From IMG/VR virus record IMGVR_UViG_2695420565_000013: 18,319 nucleotides of DNA; one strand, 5' to 3'. This stretch comes from a virus. Lineage: Duplodnaviria; Heunggongvirae; Uroviricota; Caudoviricetes. Position 1 is the first letter of the stretch; every line of letters starts with the position of its first letter. Both the position numbers and the translations under genes were made by a program. The notes beneath the pieces were generated by a model, which saw only the letters and a list, made by a program, of their open reading frames with translations, had not been told where the DNA came from and searched no databases. This document shows, in pieces, positions 1,292 to 17,935 of the stretch.

Positions 1292-2898
1292 TACCGATAT
1301 GCTCCACTTAACCGACCACCATCACGGGCCTGCTGTTGCATAAAGTCCGCTGCCGCTTTTTTCCCAAGGTCATAAACCACCTTCAGGGCAGCCGGACCTA
1401 TCTGCCCGTTCGTGCCATCGTTATTGATCTCGATGTTGTACTGCGGGGCAAACATCGCCATACCTGAACCACCAATATCCGCCACAACCCCCAGCTTACC
1501 GTCAGCACCACGACGCAGTGGCAGAATGGCTTCAGGTCCAGCTTCCCCCATCACACCCGCGCCTTTTGCAAAAGCAAAAAACGTCGGACGGTTAACCACC
1601 GTGCCACTGTAACGACTCAAATCAGCAGACTGATAAATCCCCCCATTGGCATTCAGGGAAAGGCTGCTGAGATCAAATCCCAGTACACTGCCAATCCCTT
1701 TTATCGATTTCATCATGGTTGCCTGCGCCAGGATTTTCGCCATATCTGACAGCACCGAAGAGGTGAAGGATTTGAAGTTGAGTTTGCCGGTAGTGACAAA
1801 AGTTGCCAGGCCATTTCCCATGTTGCTGAAGGCTGATGAGAACACCTGTTCTGCTGTTCCTGCCGTATTGTCTGCATCCACGGTAAAATCCTGAAATGCA
1901 CGCAGGACTCCGTTTTTCCAGTTACCCTGCACAACTTCAAGCTGTTGCCAGTAACGGCGATTCTCATTCAGTTGTCGGTTCAGGCTCTCCGTCAGCGCCT
2001 GCTCGGCCTTTCTGTAGTCATCCGTGTTATATGTCCCTTTCTGCTCACTATCCCGCCTCAACTGCTCCAGCTGTTGCTGGTATTTCTGGCGAAGACTCAG
2101 TTGTACCTGATATCGCTGCCGCTGCTGATCACCCATACCCACCGTGGCGATATCCAGGTCATGTTGCTGACGCTGAGCGCGCTCTTCTTCAGCCAGTTGA
2201 CTGGTCAGCTGAATTGTTTTTTTCTTCAGATCGTTGAGTGCCGTTTGTTTCTGAAGCTCCTGCTGTTTTACATCCAGCAGCGTCAGTGCCTGCATCAGTT
2301 CATCTTTACGGGCCAGCACACTCTTTTCATCTGCCGTCAGTTTTTTCCCGTCCAGATCGCTGATGCGCTGCTGCAGAGCCAGAAGCTGTTTATGCGCTTC
2401 TGTCATCTTTTCAGTGGCAATGCCTGCTGACTGTCTTGCAGCAGCAATCTGTCCTTCCACCTGTGCCTGTTGCTGACTGTACTGCAGCAATAACCGGGTG
2501 GCCTCATCATTACGGGTTTCGCGTGTTTTTTTCTTACCGGATGCCAGGGCTTTCTCGTAACGTTCATTTTCACGTTGTATCGCCGCATCCCTGACAGCCT
2601 GGTCGGCGTACTGCATGGCATTAATACGCGCAATTTCACGCTGATGTCGTGCTGCTTCCGTTTCATTCATCCGGTTCAGTGCAGCATTTTCAGCATTACG
2701 TCGTTTCTGTTGCTCCTGATAATTCCGCTCTGCCTGCTCTTTTGCATCCTGCAAATCCTTCTGGCGTTTTTTCTCCTGAAGATCGTTAAGACGCTGCTGA
2801 TCGTATTCAACCTGAGAAGATGATGCGTCTTTTCGCCCGCGATACTTTCTCCTGTAAAGCGGTAATCTGTTCATCCAGCGAGTCTTCACGACCAATAT
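1291..2898 (-). CDS. H: Tail tape measure protein, C-terminal portion; in +1 frame relative to the N-terminal portion (frameshifted, possible pseudogene)
   Basis: 534-codon open frame with a long coiled-coil (Q/E/K/R-rich) region and a Gly-rich C-terminus, ending by overlapping the M start. It has no plausible start of its own: the frame opens just after a stop at 2899-2901. Confidence 0.7.
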   Translation of the reverse strand: MLVVKTRWMNRLPLYRRKYRGRKDASSSQVEYDQQRLNDLQEKKRQKDLQDAKEQAERNYQEQQKRRNAENAALNRMNETEAARHQREIARINAMQYADQAVRDAAIQRENERYEKALASGKKKTRETRNDEATRLLLQYSQQQAQVEGQIAAARQSAGIATEKMTEAHKQLLALQQRISDLDGKKLTADEKSVLARKDELMQALTLLDVKQQELQKQTALNDLKKKTIQLTSQLAEEERAQRQQHDLDIATVGMGDQQRQRYQVQLSLRQKYQQQLEQLRRDSEQKGTYNTDDYRKAEQALTESLNRQLNENRRYWQQLEVVQGNWKNGVLRAFQDFTVDADNTAGTAEQVFSSAFSNMGNGLATFVTTGKLNFKSFTSSVLSDMAKILAQATMMKSIKGIGSVLGFDLSSLSLNANGGIYQSADLSRYSGTVVNRPTFFAFAKGAGVMGEAGPEAILPLRRGADGKLGVVADIGGSGMAMFAPQYNIEINNDGTNGQIGPAALKVVYDLGKKAAADFMQQQARDGGRLSGAYR

Positions 2899-4345
2899 TC
2901 ATGGCCGCATCCCAGAAACGACTCCACAAATCAGACAGATACTTCAGCGTACTGCCAAGCGCATTGAGGTTATTATCAATATCCGCAGTACGCCGACCGG
3001 TTTCCTCTGCCAGTGCAGACATGGCTATCCGTGCAGCATCACTGGACCGTCCCTGATCCCCAAGGACACGTATCTGCTCAAGCTGAGTGGCAGTAAGAAA
3101 ATGCAGCTCATTGTCCAGAGCCTTCGCGGCATTTACAGGATCATCCTTCAGCCGCTTAAACTGATTTATGGTATCGCTGACCGACTGGCCAACCGATCGC
3201 TCCATCTGTGCGGCAGCTCTCGCCACCATACCGATATCGTTTCCACGAAATGCACCACTCCCCACCACCTGCGCCAGCGCACCGGCTGCAGCATGTTGCG
3301 TGATACCATTCCCGGAAATAGCACGACTGAGCGTCCACAGCTGCCCGGCAGTGACTCCGGCATAATGCCCCGTCAGCGACAACTGGCGGTTAAATTCTTC
3401 CCCCTCCTTCTGACCGTCATACCAGGCTTTACCCAGACCATAGACGGCCGCGGCAATACCGCCAATAACCCCGCCAAGCATCATGCCTTTCGGTGACATC
3501 AGTGTGTCTATCCATCCGGCACGGTTAGCCAGCGTTATCCCGGATCCCCTCAGCGCCCCTAAATTGCCGCGGGCCAGTTCACCTATCAGAACGCCTATCT
3601 CCTGGCGGGCTGCTGCACTTTTCAGACCCAGCGAATGCGTGGCTTTTCCTGCCTGCTCCATTTTGCGGATATACACTTCTGCAGCACTGCTTACCCCCAG
3701 CTGGGCTGCCTTGGCACGAAGCAACTCAGAAGATGAAAGATTCTGGCGGGTTGCCTGCTCTTTAAGCTGACGGATAAACGCCACTTTCTGTCGGGTAGCC
3801 TCTTCCTCAGCCTGTGTAAGAACACGGGTTTTCGCAGTAACCTCAGAAATCAGCGCCAGATAATCCTGCTGACCAATCCCGCCACTGTTTCTGGCCTGTC
3901 GGATCTGCTGCTGAATACGCTGTAATTCCTGCAGCCCCGCACTGGCCTGTTTCACACTGTCAATCTGACGATAAAACGCAGCAGCCGCTTTATCCTGAGC
4001 CTCCGCCAGAGCCATGGCCTGCGCCTGTTCCTCGCGCATTTTCTGGCTCAGCGCCTCCATGCGCTGGCGGGTTTTCTCCACCTCGCGGGCCATGCGTTCA
4101 TGAGCCTGTGCGTTCTTCTCCACCGTCTGCGCATGGACGGATGCGGCTGTTGCAGCCGAAGAAGTCGCCTGCGTTGTCTGCCGGGCGGCCTGAGTCTGAC
4201 GCTCCATAAAACGCTGCATACGGGCAGACGACCGTTCTGCATCGCTGGCGGCACCATTCAGAAGGTTTTTGATACGGGGAATTTCATTTTTAAACTCTGC
4301 CGCATCAATCCCCAAATCAATGACCAGGTTGGCTATCTGGTCCAT
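2807..4345 (-). CDS. H: Tail tape measure protein, N-terminal portion (ends at TGA 2807-2809, 89 nt into the other frame)
   Basis: ATG at 4343-4345 preceded by GGAGGT (7 nt spacer). The product MDQIANLVIDLGIDAAEFK... has a coiled-coil N-terminus and a Gly/Ala-rich hydrophobic segment (GMMLGGVIGGIAAAVYGLG) typical of tape measure proteins. Position between G/T and M matches lambda H. Confidence 0.75.
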   Translation of the reverse strand: MDQIANLVIDLGIDAAEFKNEIPRIKNLLNGAASDAERSSARMQRFMERQTQAARQTTQATSSAATAASVHAQTVEKNAQAHERMAREVEKTRQRMEALSQKMREEQAQAMALAEAQDKAAAAFYRQIDSVKQASAGLQELQRIQQQIRQARNSGGIGQQDYLALISEVTAKTRVLTQAEEEATRQKVAFIRQLKEQATRQNLSSSELLRAKAAQLGVSSAAEVYIRKMEQAGKATHSLGLKSAAARQEIGVLIGELARGNLGALRGSGITLANRAGWIDTLMSPKGMMLGGVIGGIAAAVYGLGKAWYDGQKEGEEFNRQLSLTGHYAGVTAGQLWTLSRAISGNGITQHAAAGALAQVVGSGAFRGNDIGMVARAAAQMERSVGQSVSDTINQFKRLKDDPVNAAKALDNELHFLTATQLEQIRVLGDQGRSSDAARIAMSALAEETGRRTADIDNNLNALGSTLKYLSDLWSRFWDAAMNIGREDSLDEQITALQEKVSRAKRRIIFSG

Positions 4346-4679
4346 AACGCACACCTCCGGAAATACCTTCCCCAAGATGCATCAGTTCTTCGTCCGTTCG
4401 CTCCGGTATCCCGTTCTCTTCCGGTAAAAGGCTGAAATCAGCCACCGCAGCATCACTGCTGCCGGACACCATTCTCACGATCAATGCCTTCAGCGAGGCA
4501 AACTGCGCATCCATCCACACATCACTGAAGCTCTGCATCCGGAAATAATCGCCCCACTCACCAAGCTCAGTGGCCGACATTTCCGACAGCATCCGCCGCC
4601 AGTCTGCCCGCCGGAACTCCCGGGCAAGCCGCATGACAAACTGCATTTCCCGCGTCAGGACTTTTCCGGCGTCAGCGCC
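4317..4679 (-). CDS. T: Tail assembly chaperone T domain, probably made only as a G-T fusion by -1 ribosomal frameshift near the end of G
   Basis: The -1 frame relative to G is open from 4679 to 4317 and overlaps the last codons of G. Its internal ATG at 4646 has no usable Shine-Dalgarno. The arrangement mirrors lambda G/GT. The likely slip site is the A AAG lysine codon (mRNA CCGGAAAAGUCC; + strand 4658-4669). Confidence 0.55.
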   Translation of the reverse strand, partial: GADAGKVLTREMQFVMRLAREFRRADWRRMLSEMSATELGEWGDYFRMQSFSDVWMDAQFASLKALIVRMVSGSSDAAVADFSLLPEENGIPERTDEELMHLGEGISGGVRYGPDSQPGH

Positions 4680-11002: not shown

Positions 11003-11220
11003 CAGAACCTCGCCAGCCGGTACCCGGGATGCCCCCGTCGTCGTGTAATCAGAGCCGCAAGGCGGCGCTCCCACTCCTGCCGTCCCTGCCGGATCTCAGA
11101 TAAGTTTTCCATGGTCATCTGCTGACCATTAAAGGTGACGGATTTTCCGTCCAGCACCGCCATTTCAGCTTCCGTATAACGCTGAATCATGGCTTCGATA
11201 TCATTCTGGTTCATAACCAT
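11002..11220 (-). CDS. W: Head-tail joining protein W (lambda gpW-like)
   Basis: About 70-aa protein ending ...ALITRRRGHPGYRLARF, compared with lambda gpW ...QTGMTQRRRGPAGFYV. Lies between terminase large subunit and portal as in lambda. Start ATG overlaps the TerL stop (ATGGTTATGA). Confidence 0.7.
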   Translation of the reverse strand: MVMNQNDIEAMIQRYTEAEMAVLDGKSVTFNGQQMTMENLSEIRQGRQEWERRLAALITRRRGHPGYRLARF

Positions 11221-13310
11221 CCTCCGGAAGTCAGCCAGGGGTTAACATCGTCAGTTACTGTTTTCTTCCGTTTTTGTTTTTTAACAGGCGTGGATACCGG
11301 TTCCGGTGAGGATGACGGTTCGGTACTGTCCTGGACACACTCCAGCCAGGTCTCCCGGCTCGCCCACTCCGGTGCATCCGGCCAGCGGATCTTTTCGTAT
11401 CCATGCAGAATGACCAGAGCCTCGGCATACACCATCAGGTCAAAAGCTTCGTTGGCACCGCGACCCGGCTTACTCCATTTCCCGTCACTGCTCCGCTCTT
11501 CATACGTCAGTTCGTCGTAAAACCAGCTCCCCAGCCAGTCAGGGAAATGCACATAGCCTGGACCTGGCGAGTCACGCCATAACGCGTTATTCACCCGGTC
11601 TTTCAGGGCATCCGTCTGAAGAAGCCAGAGCGGCACATCACCTGCGGCCTGCGCCCGGCGGCCCGTTCGTCCGGTGTTATCAGGGAATGTACGGCTGATC
11701 AGTTTTGCGCGCCGGATGCTGTCACCCTTAAACAGGTAAATACGTTTACCAAGGCCATCACGACGGCAACGACGCCAGAATTTATAGGCATTATCAGTGA
11801 CCCCGTCTTCACCGCCGGAGTCCACCGCCATTGCCATCAGTCGCATTTGTTGAGAAGGATCGGAGGCCAGCGCCCAGCTTTTATGAAAAACATCCGTCAG
11901 CAGGACATCCCAGTCTTCCGGATAGCTGGCCGGATCAATTCGCTGGCTCTCCCCGTCGCAGTCACTGCGCAATGACTGCGTGATGTTGTAACGATCAATA
12001 ATCCAGCGTTCGCCACGACTGCCATAGCCCGTTACCTGAACCACAAAACGGCGATGACGTCCCGCCTGCACATCCACTGTCGCCACAAGGAAATTAACGC
12101 CATCCGGCACACTGCGGGAAGGAACTGGCTCTGCCCGCTGCTCAAGCAGTTCACTTTTTCGTTGCTCCATGCTGGCACGAGGAAGATAAGGCAATCCCCA
12201 GTCGGTGTTGATAACCGCCCTGAGTGTTTCTTCGCTTCCTGTCGCTTCATACTCCTGTTCTGCAGTCAGTAATTTGTAAACCAGTTGCGCCCAGGTCTGA
12301 TACGCAGCAGCTGGCCCTTCCATCCAGAAACTGGCGATACGGGAGCGGCGCGGTTCACCGGAAACGTTGCCGTTACGATCAATGACCTGACCTTCACGCA
12401 ACCAGACTCCTGCACTATTGAGCTCACGCTTTTTCTCCGCAGTGATAATGCCGCTGCAGTGCGGGCAAAGTAGATACGCCGCCTCACTGGCTTTAAAGGG
12501 ATCCGGTTCATTACGGTAGCCGGTCATGGCATCCATGGCTGGCTGAAAATATTCACCGCAGTGCGGACATGACCAGTACCAGCGGCGGCGGTCACCACGA
12601 TTGTAAAGGGAAAGAATACCAGTCGTCGGTGGCGCTTCATGAGGCGACTTACGTCGCCATTTGCTGTCGCAGATGTCACGTCCCGGCGAGCTCTCCACCA
12701 GAGTCATCCCAGCGGACATAAATGTGGTGGTACGTTTTGAGGCCAGGGAGAAACCATCACCCTCGCTGTCGATATTCTCCGGAAAACGGTCGTAATCGGT
12801 TAAGGCGACAAACCGGTAATCCGACGACGACATAATGTTGACCGAGGGCCAACCAATTTTAAGGAACGAGCCATCCCTGAACGTCTTATCATGGACATTA
12901 TTGTCGTTACGACGTGGACTCATTCTTTTCTTTACCGCCGCACTGCTTCTGAACGTTCTGTCGAGGCGCTTTTTAGAATGCTCGCGGGCCTTATCTTCGG
13001 TCATCTGCACAACGAGCATGTCCGAAGGATCGCAAACGATGGTATAGACAATCCATCCATCGATCAGACCAATGGTCTTCCCTGTTCGCGCAGGACCAAC
13101 AAAAATCACCGCATCGTATTCACGCGATGCCAGGCAGTTCATGGGCTCAATGATGTAGGGTGTCAGTTCAGGATCCCATGGCACCGAGTTACCAGCCCCC
13201 TTGGGAACACGCATGAATTTTTTAACAGCCTCCGAAATCGGCATGCGACGTGGTGGGGAAAATCCTGCCGATATGTCCCTTCCCAAATTTCGGGCTGATG
13301 AAAAACCCAT
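11211..13310 (-). CDS. Terminase large subunit (699 aa)
   Basis: 699-aa ORF with Walker A-like motif VGPARTGKT and paired Cys motifs (CPHCGEYF...CPHCSG). AGGAGG Shine-Dalgarno 4 nt upstream of ATG 13308-13310. Directly follows the small subunit gene. Confidence 0.9.
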   Translation of the reverse strand: MGFSSARNLGRDISAGFSPPRRMPISEAVKKFMRVPKGAGNSVPWDPELTPYIIEPMNCLASREYDAVIFVGPARTGKTIGLIDGWIVYTIVCDPSDMLVVQMTEDKAREHSKKRLDRTFRSSAAVKKRMSPRRNDNNVHDKTFRDGSFLKIGWPSVNIMSSSDYRFVALTDYDRFPENIDSEGDGFSLASKRTTTFMSAGMTLVESSPGRDICDSKWRRKSPHEAPPTTGILSLYNRGDRRRWYWSCPHCGEYFQPAMDAMTGYRNEPDPFKASEAAYLLCPHCSGIITAEKKRELNSAGVWLREGQVIDRNGNVSGEPRRSRIASFWMEGPAAAYQTWAQLVYKLLTAEQEYEATGSEETLRAVINTDWGLPYLPRASMEQRKSELLEQRAEPVPSRSVPDGVNFLVATVDVQAGRHRRFVVQVTGYGSRGERWIIDRYNITQSLRSDCDGESQRIDPASYPEDWDVLLTDVFHKSWALASDPSQQMRLMAMAVDSGGEDGVTDNAYKFWRRCRRDGLGKRIYLFKGDSIRRAKLISRTFPDNTGRTGRRAQAAGDVPLWLLQTDALKDRVNNALWRDSPGPGYVHFPDWLGSWFYDELTYEERSSDGKWSKPGRGANEAFDLMVYAEALVILHGYEKIRWPDAPEWASRETWLECVQDSTEPSSSPEPVSTPVKKQKRKKTVTDDVNPWLTSGGWL

Positions 13311-13318
13311 TATTCCTC

Positions 13319-13846
13319 CTAGAGACTCTCTCCTTCCTCATCAGGAATTAATTCAGCAGCACAAGCCTCGTAGGATTTTTCCTGAAGAGTGTATCGCAGG
13401 TCATCAATGGCCTGCTGTACAACGCCGACGGCCTGAGGAGTCAGGGCGCAATCGCGTTCAAGAACATCCGGAATTGTCTCCAGAACCTGGACGACAGCCT
13501 TTCTCATGGACGAATAGACGATGACTACTTCATCAACGGGGATGAGTTTTCGCTGCTCCTTTTCCAGCTTGATCCTTTCATTTTCAGATTGGTACCAGTC
13601 CTTTCTCTCTTTCGGCTCCATACGGGATGGATCATGAACAGAGTCTGCTGCCTCATGCTTCACACTAAACAGGGCTGGCCCGACATGCTGCAGGGCGTAA
13701 ACGGGGTTCCCCCTGACAGTCGCAGCCACAGGAGTGTTAGCCGCGAGGAGCCGTTTTTTTACTGTGTCCCGGTGAAGCCCAAAGGCCTCAGCGATTTTAA
13801 AAACACTCCAGTAATAAGCATCACCGATCCCGCTCACATTTGACAT
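13319..13846 (-). CDS. Terminase small subunit (about 175 aa)
   Basis: Start placed at ATG 13844-13846 (GGAG, 6 nt spacer), giving MSNVSGIGDAYYWSVFKIAEAFGLHRDTVKKRL... with an N-terminal helix-turn-helix-like segment. Immediately upstream of the large subunit. In K-12 the Qin gene at this position is the pseudogene nohQ. Confidence 0.7.
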   Translation of the reverse strand: MSNVSGIGDAYYWSVFKIAEAFGLHRDTVKKRLLAANTPVAATVRGNPVYALQHVGPALFSVKHEAADSVHDPSRMEPKERKDWYQSENERIKLEKEQRKLIPVDEVVIVYSSMRKAVVQVLETIPDVLERDCALTPQAVGVVQQAIDDLRYTLQEKSYEACAAELIPDEEGESL

Positions 13847-14070
13847 AAGCAACTCCATCTGGCAGGTGAAAATCATGTTTATTTATATATTTCAATTAAT
13901 TGCAAACTGGTCTAATGACAGGGAGAAAGAAATATTGTACAGGTGAAAAGAGAAATAACTTTTAATTATCAATAAATTACCAAACATGCTGCCGCCGCCA
14001 TGGAAATGCAAAAACTAGCCTTTTTCCGCGACGCTCCCGCCCGTGGCAGGGGCCCCCACCGGGAGGACCC

Positions 14071-14094
14071 GACAGCCTGACAGCCTGACAGCCG
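14071..14094. repeat. Three tandem copies of GACAGCCT (third copy GACAGCCG) inside a GC-rich island
   Basis: Read directly: gacagcct gacagcct gacagccg at 14071-14094. Preceded by GGGGCCCCC and CCGCCGCC elements (about 13990-14070), in an otherwise AT-rich 540-bp non-coding region upstream of the terminase genes. Confidence 0.6.
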
Positions 14095-14229
14095 TGATGA
14101 GCATCTGATACAGCGCTTTACATAATGGCATAGGAATAATTCAGAAGGACATCACAGCATGCCCACACAAATTAGTGTGAGTGTCCTGTTTCTTCCTACG
14201 CACAGGACTGACGAGCATGAGGGGAAAAT

Positions 14230-14397
14230 ATGCGAACCATAAATGCCTCATCTTCAGCAATGCAACCGGCATCCGAACAGGACGATATTGTAAATTCACC
14301 TAATTACGAGGACATTGCAGTAGTTGAATTGCAGCTCTGTATTAGCCTGACAGTGACAGAATGCGATATTGACTCTGTCACAGGTGAAATAGTTTGA
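14230..14397 (+). CDS. Hypothetical small acidic protein (55 aa); speculative
   Basis: ATG 14230 preceded by GAGGGG (about 6 nt spacer). Encodes MRTINASSSAMQPASEQDDIVNSPNYEDIAVVELQLCISLTVTECDIDSVTGEIV. Below the ORF-track size cutoff. No recognised family. Confidence 0.25.
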   Translation: MRTINASSSAMQPASEQDDIVNSPNYEDIAVVELQLCISLTVTECDIDSVTGEIV

Positions 14398-14417
14398 ATG
14401 ATTAGCAGTTATGGTGC

Positions 14418-14624
14418 TCAGTCAACCACCAGGGAATAATCCTTCGAATTCTTATCGTGCTTCACCAACGCTGCCTCAATTGCCCTGAATGCTTCCAGAG
14501 ACACCTGATGTTCTATACATGCAATTACAACATCCGGGTAACTCATAGAAATGGTGCTATTAAGCATATTTTTTACACGAATCAGATCCAACGAGACTTC
14601 ATCAGCAGATTGTTCTTTATTCAT
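14418..14624 (-). CDS. ynfO: Small hypothetical protein (68 aa) at the position of Qin ynfO
   Basis: ATG 14622-14624 with GGAG 7 nt upstream: [26 protein letters not shown].... Symbol assigned from synteny with the K-12 Qin order (nohQ-ynfO-ydfO-gnsB-ynfN-cspI) as I recall it; sequence identity not checked. Confidence 0.55.
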
Positions 14625-14924
14625 TTTGTCGCTCCATGCGTTTGCTCGTCATCTAGCGGTTAAAATATTACTTCAAATCTTACTGCATAAAAGAGGAAAA
14701 GTATGAAAGTTTGAGTACATCGACCTTACATACATCTGTCGGTTGCATATCCCTCCTGGATGCCAGCAAGGCTCAATTTTGTTACGCAATCAACACTATT
14801 CATTAAAAACAGGCTTAATATTTGACATAAATCATCAACAAAACACAAAGAGGTCAGACCAGATTGAAACAATAAACACGATAATGCTAACTACGCGCCA
14901 TCGTATCACATGGAAGGTTTACCA

Positions 14925-15335
14925 ATGGCTCAGGCTGCCATTTTTAAAGAAATATTCGATCAAGTGCGTAAAGATTTAAACTGTGAATTATTTTATTCTG
15001 AGCTAAAACGTCACAATGTCTCACTTTATATTTACTATTTAGCCACAGATAATATTCACATTGTGTTAGAAAACGACAACATAGTGTTAGTAAAAGGACT
15101 CAAAAAGGTTGTAAATGTTAAATTCTCCAGAAACAAACATCTTATAGAGACCTCCTATAATAAGTTGAAATCAAAAGAAATCACATTTCAACAATACAGG
15201 GAAAATCTTGCTAAAGCAGGAGTTTTCCGATGGGTTACAAATATCCAGGAACACCAAAGATATTACTATGCCTTTGATAACTCATTACTATTTACTGAAA
15301 GCATCCAGAAAACTACACAGATCTTACCACGCTAA
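14925..15335 (+). CDS. ydfO: DUF1398 family protein (YdfO/YbcV-like, about 136 aa)
   Basis: Only plus-strand gene in the island. Start placed at the second ATG (14925; GGAAGG 7 nt upstream) giving [18 protein letters not shown]...; the ORF-track start is 14910. Size and position match YdfO/YbcV (DUF1398) of lambdoid prophages. Confidence 0.6.
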
Positions 15336-16546: not shown

Positions 16547-16907
16547 AATTATTACCTTTTGAAGAAATTAGCCCTTGGGCAGAATGGTCCGAAAAAAATA
16601 TCAGAGAGAAAAACCAACAAGGAAATCTCAAGAGGTACAAATAATAAAATTATAACAATGACTGCTTCAGATAAATTTGTAACAAACCAGAACACCATTA
16701 ACGCATGATTAACCACCCATAGCAAGGATTACTTTTGTAAAGAAAAACACAGCAATGAAAGAATAGCTTTATTTATTAATAAAACGTGTCATTCTGATTA
16801 AGACCTTTTATCTTACCCTTAAGATTTCAGGAATTTTGGCTCATGGAAGAGTCCTTTTTATTTAAATTTTACATTCCGCGATGTAAATGTTCCGATTTAA
16901 TATTACC

Positions 16908-17931
<1,024 letters not shown>

Positions 17932-17935
<4 letters not shown>

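Follow-up and report, generated by a model that had tools for sequence, protein, structure and literature searches.

A predicted lambda-type cohesive-end (cos) site preceding a DUF1441 small-terminase gene in an Escherichia coli prophage

Late region of the prophage and its terminase genes

The window, by which we mean the whole stretch of 18,319 nucleotides analyzed here, came from a lambdoid E. coli prophage and represented its late region; the late operon lay on the minus strand. From the lysozyme gene, the gene order ran through an Rz-like gene and an accessory cluster to the cos region, and onward to the small terminase, the large terminase, a head-tail adaptor, a lambda-family portal, a ClpP-capsid fusion, and the tail genes (Table 1). 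The nearest complete genomes were E. coli prophages, e.g., those of strain OkiPb01717 (99.9%) and O26:H11 11368. In near-identical prophages annotated by NCBI with PGAP, the interval from the DUF1441 small-terminase gene to ybcW contained no annotated gene, in agreement with the non-coding status that an earlier note on this DNA had assigned to the stretch. The small-terminase gene probably starts at ATG 13846 rather than ATG 13876, with GGAG upstream at 13856–13853; if it does, the non-coding stretch would probably begin at 13847. The same note had described a GC-rich block at about 13990–14100 in AT-rich surroundings, and the base composition bore this out: the GC content was 65.8% in 13990–14100 and 25.7% in 13877–13989, with 45% in 14101–14229 and a mean of 50.4% over the window.

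Two observations were made on neighboring sequences. On the plus strand, antisense to the late operon, a 55-aa ORF (14230–14397) with a strong GAGGGG ribosome-binding site gave a full-length match to PHROG 4035 (unknown function; 1.2e-41), and part of it was 88.6% identical to unannotated lambda DNA (47917–48090). PGAP left this ORF without annotation in the near-identical prophages, and a codon-position check had too few distinct homologues to inform. The ybcV (DUF1398) gene contained a 21-bp tandem repeat at 15058–15099 (2.0 copies, 85% match).

Table 1. Positions of genes, predicted cos subsites, and length differences in the window
Feature	Position	Strand	Remarks
Lysozyme gene	17402–17935		First in the late-region gene order listed
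Rz-like protein gene	16908–17405		Next after lysozyme
Accessory cluster	Between Rz-like gene and cos region		cspI, ynfN, gnsB, ybcV, ybcW
A8-to-A7 length difference	16591		Intergenic, cspI/Rz-like gene; A7 exact in 127 complete genomes
Tandem octamer repeat	14071–14093	−	AGGCTGTC on the minus strand; adjoins cosQ on its 5' side
cosQ heptamer	14064–14070	−	GGGTCCT; identical to that of lambda, same relative place
cosQ–cosN spacer	14043–14063	−	21 nt; includes GGGGCCCC at 14049–14056
G loss (length difference)	In cosN		Private
Predicted nicks	14043/14042 (minus strand); 14031/14030 (plus strand)
cosN, predicted 12-nt cohesive end	14031–14042	−	5'-GGGCGGGAGCGT; 8/12 match to lambda GGGCGGCGACCT
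cosB, AT-rich	14030–13847	−	Between cosN and terS
cosN-proximal block	14000–14030	−	CGCGGAAAAAGGCTAGTTTTTGCATTTCCAT; common to cos sites with different cosB/TerS modules
TerS-specific cosB part	13847–13999	−	Nearly invariant in 81 sequences with 99–100% identical TerS
IHF consensus, perfect	13967–13979	+	TATCAATAAATTA (WATCAANNNNTTR); bp 64–76 from left genome end
TTTTCACCTG copy 1	13940–13949	−	Candidate R-like TerS-binding repeat, low confidence
TTTTCACCTG copy 2	13863–13872	−	Candidate R1-like TerS-binding repeat, just upstream of TerS ribosome-binding site
Small terminase subunit gene	13319–13846	−	175 aa; Pfam DUF1441, 1.9e-44; PHROG 141 'terminase small subunit', 7.9e-65
Large terminase gene	11211–13310	−	Lambda gpA family; Pfam GpA_ATPase, 4.2e-80; GpA_nuclease, 3.8e-86
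11-bp deletion (length difference)	2826		In no complete E. coli genome

The N-terminus of the small terminase (TerS) contained a helix-turn-helix-like segment, KIAEAFGLHRDTVKKRL. TerS cross-matched phrog_57, the family of lambda Nu1, at 1e-9, and Nu1 matched phrog_141 at 5.6e-8. These reciprocal matches extended over most of the length and indicated that TerS is a remote homologue of Nu1. Pfam placed TerS in DUF1441 and not in Phage_Nu1, BLASTP of TerS against lambda Nu1 was not significant (E = 4.6), and a PDB search with a five-sequence TerS profile gave a chance-level match only and did not find Nu1. A scan of a genome collection with TerS gave at least two loci among the matches listed. 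One contig (JAGZPX010000007.1, our L010), assigned by its label to a metagenome-assembled genome of Veillonella parvula, encoded a TerS 99% identical to that of the window and is most likely a mis-binned Escherichia contig. The large terminase (TerL), the enzyme expected to nick cosN, aligned with lambda gpA along nearly its entire length at 24% identity (E = 2e-22).

Arrangement of cosQ, cosN, and cosB

Read on the minus strand, the region consisted of AGGCTGTC three times, GGGTCCT, CCCGGTGGGGGCCCCTGCCAC, GGGCGGGAGCGT, and CGCGG, for comparison with GGGTCCT, 23 nt, GGGCGGCGACCT, and CGCGG in lambda. The lambda cos site is composed of cosQ, cosN, and cosB, the last with the order R3-I1-R2-R1, in which the R3/R2 pair is inverted, and cosQ is the packaging-termination signal. 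The composite pattern GGGTCCT-N(18–27)-GGGCGG had a single occurrence in the window and none in 200 shuffled sequences; thus, the arrangement was not due to chance. A 105-nt alignment to lambda cos scored 16, well above all 500 shuffled sequences (−14.4 ± 8.3). We therefore consider, with high confidence, that the region is a lambda-type cohesive-end site on the minus strand, just upstream of the small-terminase gene. The earlier note had proposed a candidate cos at this place, and the proposal was borne out by the match to lambda cosQ and cosN and by the ends of relatives' records. The GC-rich island is made up of cosQ, the spacer, cosN, and the first part of cosB. Elements of this kind were known before, and the ends of phage records already in the databases imply this very site.

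The comparison with relatives, a check named in the earlier note, was made with an alignment of 81 sequences (78 IMG/VR loci, Tritos, cdtI, and the window) representing 68 distinct upstream regions. The GenBank records of cdtI and Tritos both start with GGGCGGGAGCGT, and the Tritos record ends with ...CCTGCCACG (...CCACG), following the same convention as the lambda record. Window positions 13700–14042 aligned at 98% identity to the opening 343 bases of the cdtI record (AB285204) and window positions 14042–14450 at 99.3% identity to the closing 409 bases of the Tritos record (OV696610), and the match to these records broke at window position 14042. Both phages encode a TerS 100% identical to that of the window. 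Tritos is plaque-forming with siphovirus particles (PMC9928086); the paper on Tritos contains no statement on genome ends (PMC9928086), and the two records may have been opened at cos by homology rather than by experiment.

The heptamer GGGTCCT was present in all relatives having enough upstream flank. Conservation rose sharply at its first base and ran through cosB, and the DNA 5' of the heptamer was mosaic; similarity among the relatives, and to the TerS-less cassettes described below, started precisely with its first G. Lambda-like phages show high conservation of the 7-bp cosQ, and in the lambda-like cohesive-end group cosQ is invariant, cosN variation is confined to positions 7–12, and CG is kept beside the nicks (PMC4669245). 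Gifsy-1, phi80, 21, N15, and Monarch belong to the lambda-like cohesive-end phages and have a lambda-like 12-nt 5' end and a conserved cosQ (PMC4669245). The cosN of the window was identical to GGGCGGCGACCT at positions 1–6, 10, and 12 and different at positions 7, 8, 9, and 11, whereas that of Gifsy-1, as described in PMC4669245, differs from lambda at 8, 9, and 11. The surrounding sequence CAC(G)GGGCGGGAGCGTCGCGG (14046–14026) matched the nick region of lambda, and the CG flank at the right nick was present (14030–14029). A literature search for the 12-mer returned unrelated human or rat gene papers only.

The window resembled lambda in the order and orientation of the site relative to terS and terL, the cosQ heptamer, the CGCGG right flank, a spacer of similar length (21–22 vs. 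23 nt), an IHF site inside cosB, and a gpA-family TerL. It was unlike lambda in that cosB was unrelated beyond about 30 bp from cosN, TerS was a DUF1441/PHROG 141 protein only remotely related to Nu1, TerL identity was as low as stated above, and the candidate repeats were direct, whereas lambda R3/R2 are inverted.

A pac site for headful packaging would also sit near a small-terminase gene. Nevertheless, headful packaging is extremely improbable here because TerL belongs to the gpA family, that of the cos-cutting terminase of lambda, and because the sequence matched lambda cosQ and cosN; in addition, the records of related phages have their unique ends placed here. Another reading, which the earlier note had offered as its alternative, is that the region encodes a small RNA or serves to regulate transcription. 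The GC-rich island lies in a non-coding stretch, and its fold (−50.8 kcal/mol) was stable in absolute terms. However, folds of the GC block on both strands were no better than those of shuffled sequences (z = −0.49 and +0.75), there was no Rfam family at E ≤ 1 in 13300–15000, a scan found neither a promoter-like nor a terminator-like site within the region, and conservation tracked the cos subsites and not a hairpin. The Rfam, promoter/terminator, and fold scans thus left this alternative unsupported, and we give it hardly any credence.

The subsites of this lambda-type cos differed from the anatomy proposed in the earlier note, in which GGGGCCCC was the nicking core of cosN and three GACAGCCT units were R sites. 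Both motifs were found near the terminase genes: the palindrome occurred once, and Tandem Repeats Finder reported the repeat with period 8, 2.9 copies, and 100% match for the unit GACAGCCT, the third unit ending in G and not in T. Their proposed roles did not hold. The palindrome fell within the cosQ–cosN spacer, in the most variable columns inside cos, and was present in only 19 of the 81 sequences, and the ends of the phage records lie 7 bp from it, at CACG/GGGCGG. The repeat lay 5' of cosQ, outside cos and on the wrong side of cosN for cosB. Of the 81 relatives, 12 carried three units and at least 43 carried two, either exact or degenerate. In at least 15, unrelated sequence took the place of the repeat; cdtI, whose sequence 5' of cosQ differs, was one of these. 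Tritos and the window share the same three units. Among phages recovered as virions, the number of octamer copies was 3 in Tritos, 2 in HannyBb, and 0 in cdtI, and the TerS-less cassettes were entirely without the repeat. This comparison indicated that the GACAGCCT repeat is variable and dispensable for cos, and, lying outside the conserved block, it is probably neutral and slippage-prone. The proposed anatomy is accordingly very unlikely. What the earlier note had treated as AT-rich background, 14030–13847, corresponded to cosB.

In the lambda-type arrangement, cosB was composed of two parts. The cosN-proximal CGCGGAAAAAGGCTAGTTTTTGCATTTCCAT block was kept in mEp460_ev081, VT1-Sakai, PSTCR8lys, Trabulsiella, and Gifsy-2 and was recognizable in lambda, and the modules diverged only past it. 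In the TerS-specific part, the minus-strand CATGGCGGCGGCAGCATG (13992–13999), which is the CCGCCGCC correctly reported in the earlier note, occupied the position equivalent to lambda R3. The IHF consensus match was the only one in the 18.3-kb window, over which about 0.76 was expected, and its core was invariant in the 81 relatives. A match at bp 64–76 was also found in Providencia phage PSTCR8lys and a one-mismatch version at bp 63–75 in a Trabulsiella prophage, whose TerS proteins were 53–57% identical to that of the window with a nearly identical putative recognition helix. The element at 13967–13979 is a candidate counterpart of the lambda I1 bending site.

The exact decamer TTTTCACCTG occurred twice in the 18.3-kb window, both times within cosB. 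Copy 2 was invariant among the 81 relatives with the exception of one singleton, was found as the same decamer in the same place in PSTCR8lys, and was retained in the TerS-less cassettes. Copy 1 was variable in about 20 of the 81 relatives, and this polymorphism weakened the case for a TerS-binding role. Both copies were direct, and a search of cosB revealed neither an inverted partner of TTTTCACCTG nor an inverted R3/R2-like pair. We regard both copies as low-confidence candidates for small-terminase binding sites. When 8-mers recurring in three diverged cosBs were sought without bias, most of those returned were AT-rich words, along with a TTTTCA core; since these cosBs are related by descent, the enrichment over shuffled sequences was not independent evidence.

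By analogy with lambda, the small terminase would bind cosB on concatemeric phage DNA via its N-terminal helix-turn-helix, and an IHF-induced bend at 13967–13979 would aid this binding. The gpA-type large subunit would thereby be placed to nick cosN 12 bp apart, generating the 5' overhang GGGCGGGAGCGT. Packaging would proceed from the terminase-gene end and would stop when the motor reached the next cosQ–cosN.

Co-segregation of cosB with TerS and TerS-less cassettes

In 111 cos sites with an identical 25-nt cosN core, each cosB type paired with its own TerS type, and there was no cross-combination among the matches listed. This co-segregation is the strongest functional evidence for cosB that the sequences provide. 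Across loci L097–L216, the identical 25-nt core was joined to at least three cosB/TerS modules, with the TerS N-termini ...YYWSVFKIAEAFGLHRDTVKK..., MDRELKNLTLNISQLAALSGVHRQTAAA..., and MDHELKNLVLNINQLAALSGLHRQTVVA..., and the module joint lay about 30–40 bp to the right of cosN. The TerS proteins of Gifsy-2, Fels-1, and VT1-Sakai belonged to the same DUF1441 family as that of the window. The cosN of Gifsy-2 was different from that of the window, and a scan of the Gifsy-2 cosB found no match to the IHF consensus or to a CACCTG-type motif.

Several contigs carried cassettes lacking TerS, in which the similarity spanned the first G of cosQ to about the TerS start codon, corresponding to window positions 14070–13835, and the whole 13847–13999 part of cosB was retained. 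These limits indicated a bounded portable unit of 14070–13835. Two or three direct cosQ–cosN sites were observed in L100 (IMGVR_UViG_2574179916_000005; positions 67, 8202, and 10738) and also in L153, L183, and L207. One site per such contig was a complete window-type cos cassette between terminator-like hairpins, with a mutated TerS start codon and no TerS gene after it; the cassette of L100 was situated between an integrase/Bro/AAA_25/SSB block and a ClpP-capsid gene. The four contigs could represent satellite-like elements or rearranged prophage remnants packageable by a cdtI/Tritos-type terminase. In PICIs, the cos-rpp arrangement carries a cosQ–cosN unit without the terminase gene of its own phage (PMC9026076), and the TerS-less cassettes of the four contigs resembled such PICI cos sites. 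The window cos was unlike them, being the phage's own site, within a complete late operon that includes its own terS and terL.

In phage HannyBb (PP925841, locus 582–981), three short genes for 'hypothetical protein' were annotated across cosB, cosN, and cosQ. These are probably over-annotation; PGAP calls none in the equivalent prophages.

The missing G and the state of the prophage

The window copy differed from its relatives at the left nick. The sequence CCACGGGGCGGGAGCGTCGCGG was present in 78 of the 81 related sequences (CACG/GGGC, the slash marking the nick), and among them only the window was short of a G. The window read CCAC-GGGCGGGAGCGT (three Gs, G3), whereas the relatives, including cdtI and Tritos, read CCACG-GGGCGGGAGCGT (four Gs, G4); the 12-mer itself was intact. 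Because one G was missing, the left-nick flank of the window read AC, so the nick-flanking CG was found in the family and not in the window copy. The loss also placed cosQ 21 nt from the left nick instead of 22; the cosQ–cosN spacer was 22 nt in Tritos and cdtI, 23 nt in lambda and PSTCR8lys, and 24 nt in VT1-Sakai. None of 5,426 complete E. coli genomes matched the G3 variant exactly over its full length, and it had no match in IMG/VR or in 241 M metagenome records and no counterpart among 79 other sequences with a scorable G run. The G4 form gave at least 120 matches among those listed, and the cos core was matched in about 1,900 of the 5,426 complete E. coli genomes. Since the conserved G beside the left nick is missing, the window copy may not be functional.

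Compared with the nearest genome, the window showed three length differences only, namely the G loss, the A8-to-A7 change, and the 11-bp deletion (Table 1). The 11-bp deletion shifted the reading frame of the tape-measure gene, which appeared as two overlapping ORFs (1291–2895 and 2807–4375, minus strand), whereas the gene of the relatives was a single 3066-nt CDS. Because this deletion was absent from complete E. coli genomes, the prophage is probably tail-defective. The frameshift also suggested that the prophage is probably decaying, and its cos may be cut poorly.

These data bear on the possibility that the site is a relic, i.e., a cos by descent in which the base loss at the left nick is real, correct cutting is abolished, and the site no longer works. 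Consistent with a relic, the G3 form was absent from every collection searched, and the lost base belonged to a CG flank, which is under selection, as is the left half of cosN (PMC4669245). The private 11-bp tape-measure deletion in the same prophage is no homopolymer artefact, and a prophage that looks defective makes a real cos lesion plausible. The A7 at 16591 is a common natural allele, and therefore the sequence does not look error-ridden. On the other hand, the shortening of a G run by one base is typical of errors in sequencing or assembly, and G3 may be such an error. Moreover, the 12-mer was still readable, and the natural cosQ-to-nick spacing ranged over 22–24 nt, against 21 nt here; therefore, cosB-anchored cutting might tolerate the loss of the G. 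Weighing both sides, we consider a relic possible, with the chances somewhat against it.

Equally tentative is the view that the G loss is real and private, resulting in a cos-defective, locked-in prophage or in an altered cut, and that the DUF1441 TerS and its cosB, with the IHF site and the direct TTTTCACCTG repeats, represent an uncharacterised packaging specificity that differs from the ones of lambda, 21, and N15. If this specificity is distinct, the portable cassette 14070–13835 may be borrowed by TerS-less elements.

The PGAP annotation of two near-identical prophages has no feature over the cos stretch, and the missing G together with the tape-measure frameshift suggests that this prophage is no longer able to make infectious particles. 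Neither the point on annotation nor that on the strain changes the understanding of DNA packaging. For an E. coli prophage family that is very common, the predicted site would define where the genome ends lie and in which direction packaging runs.
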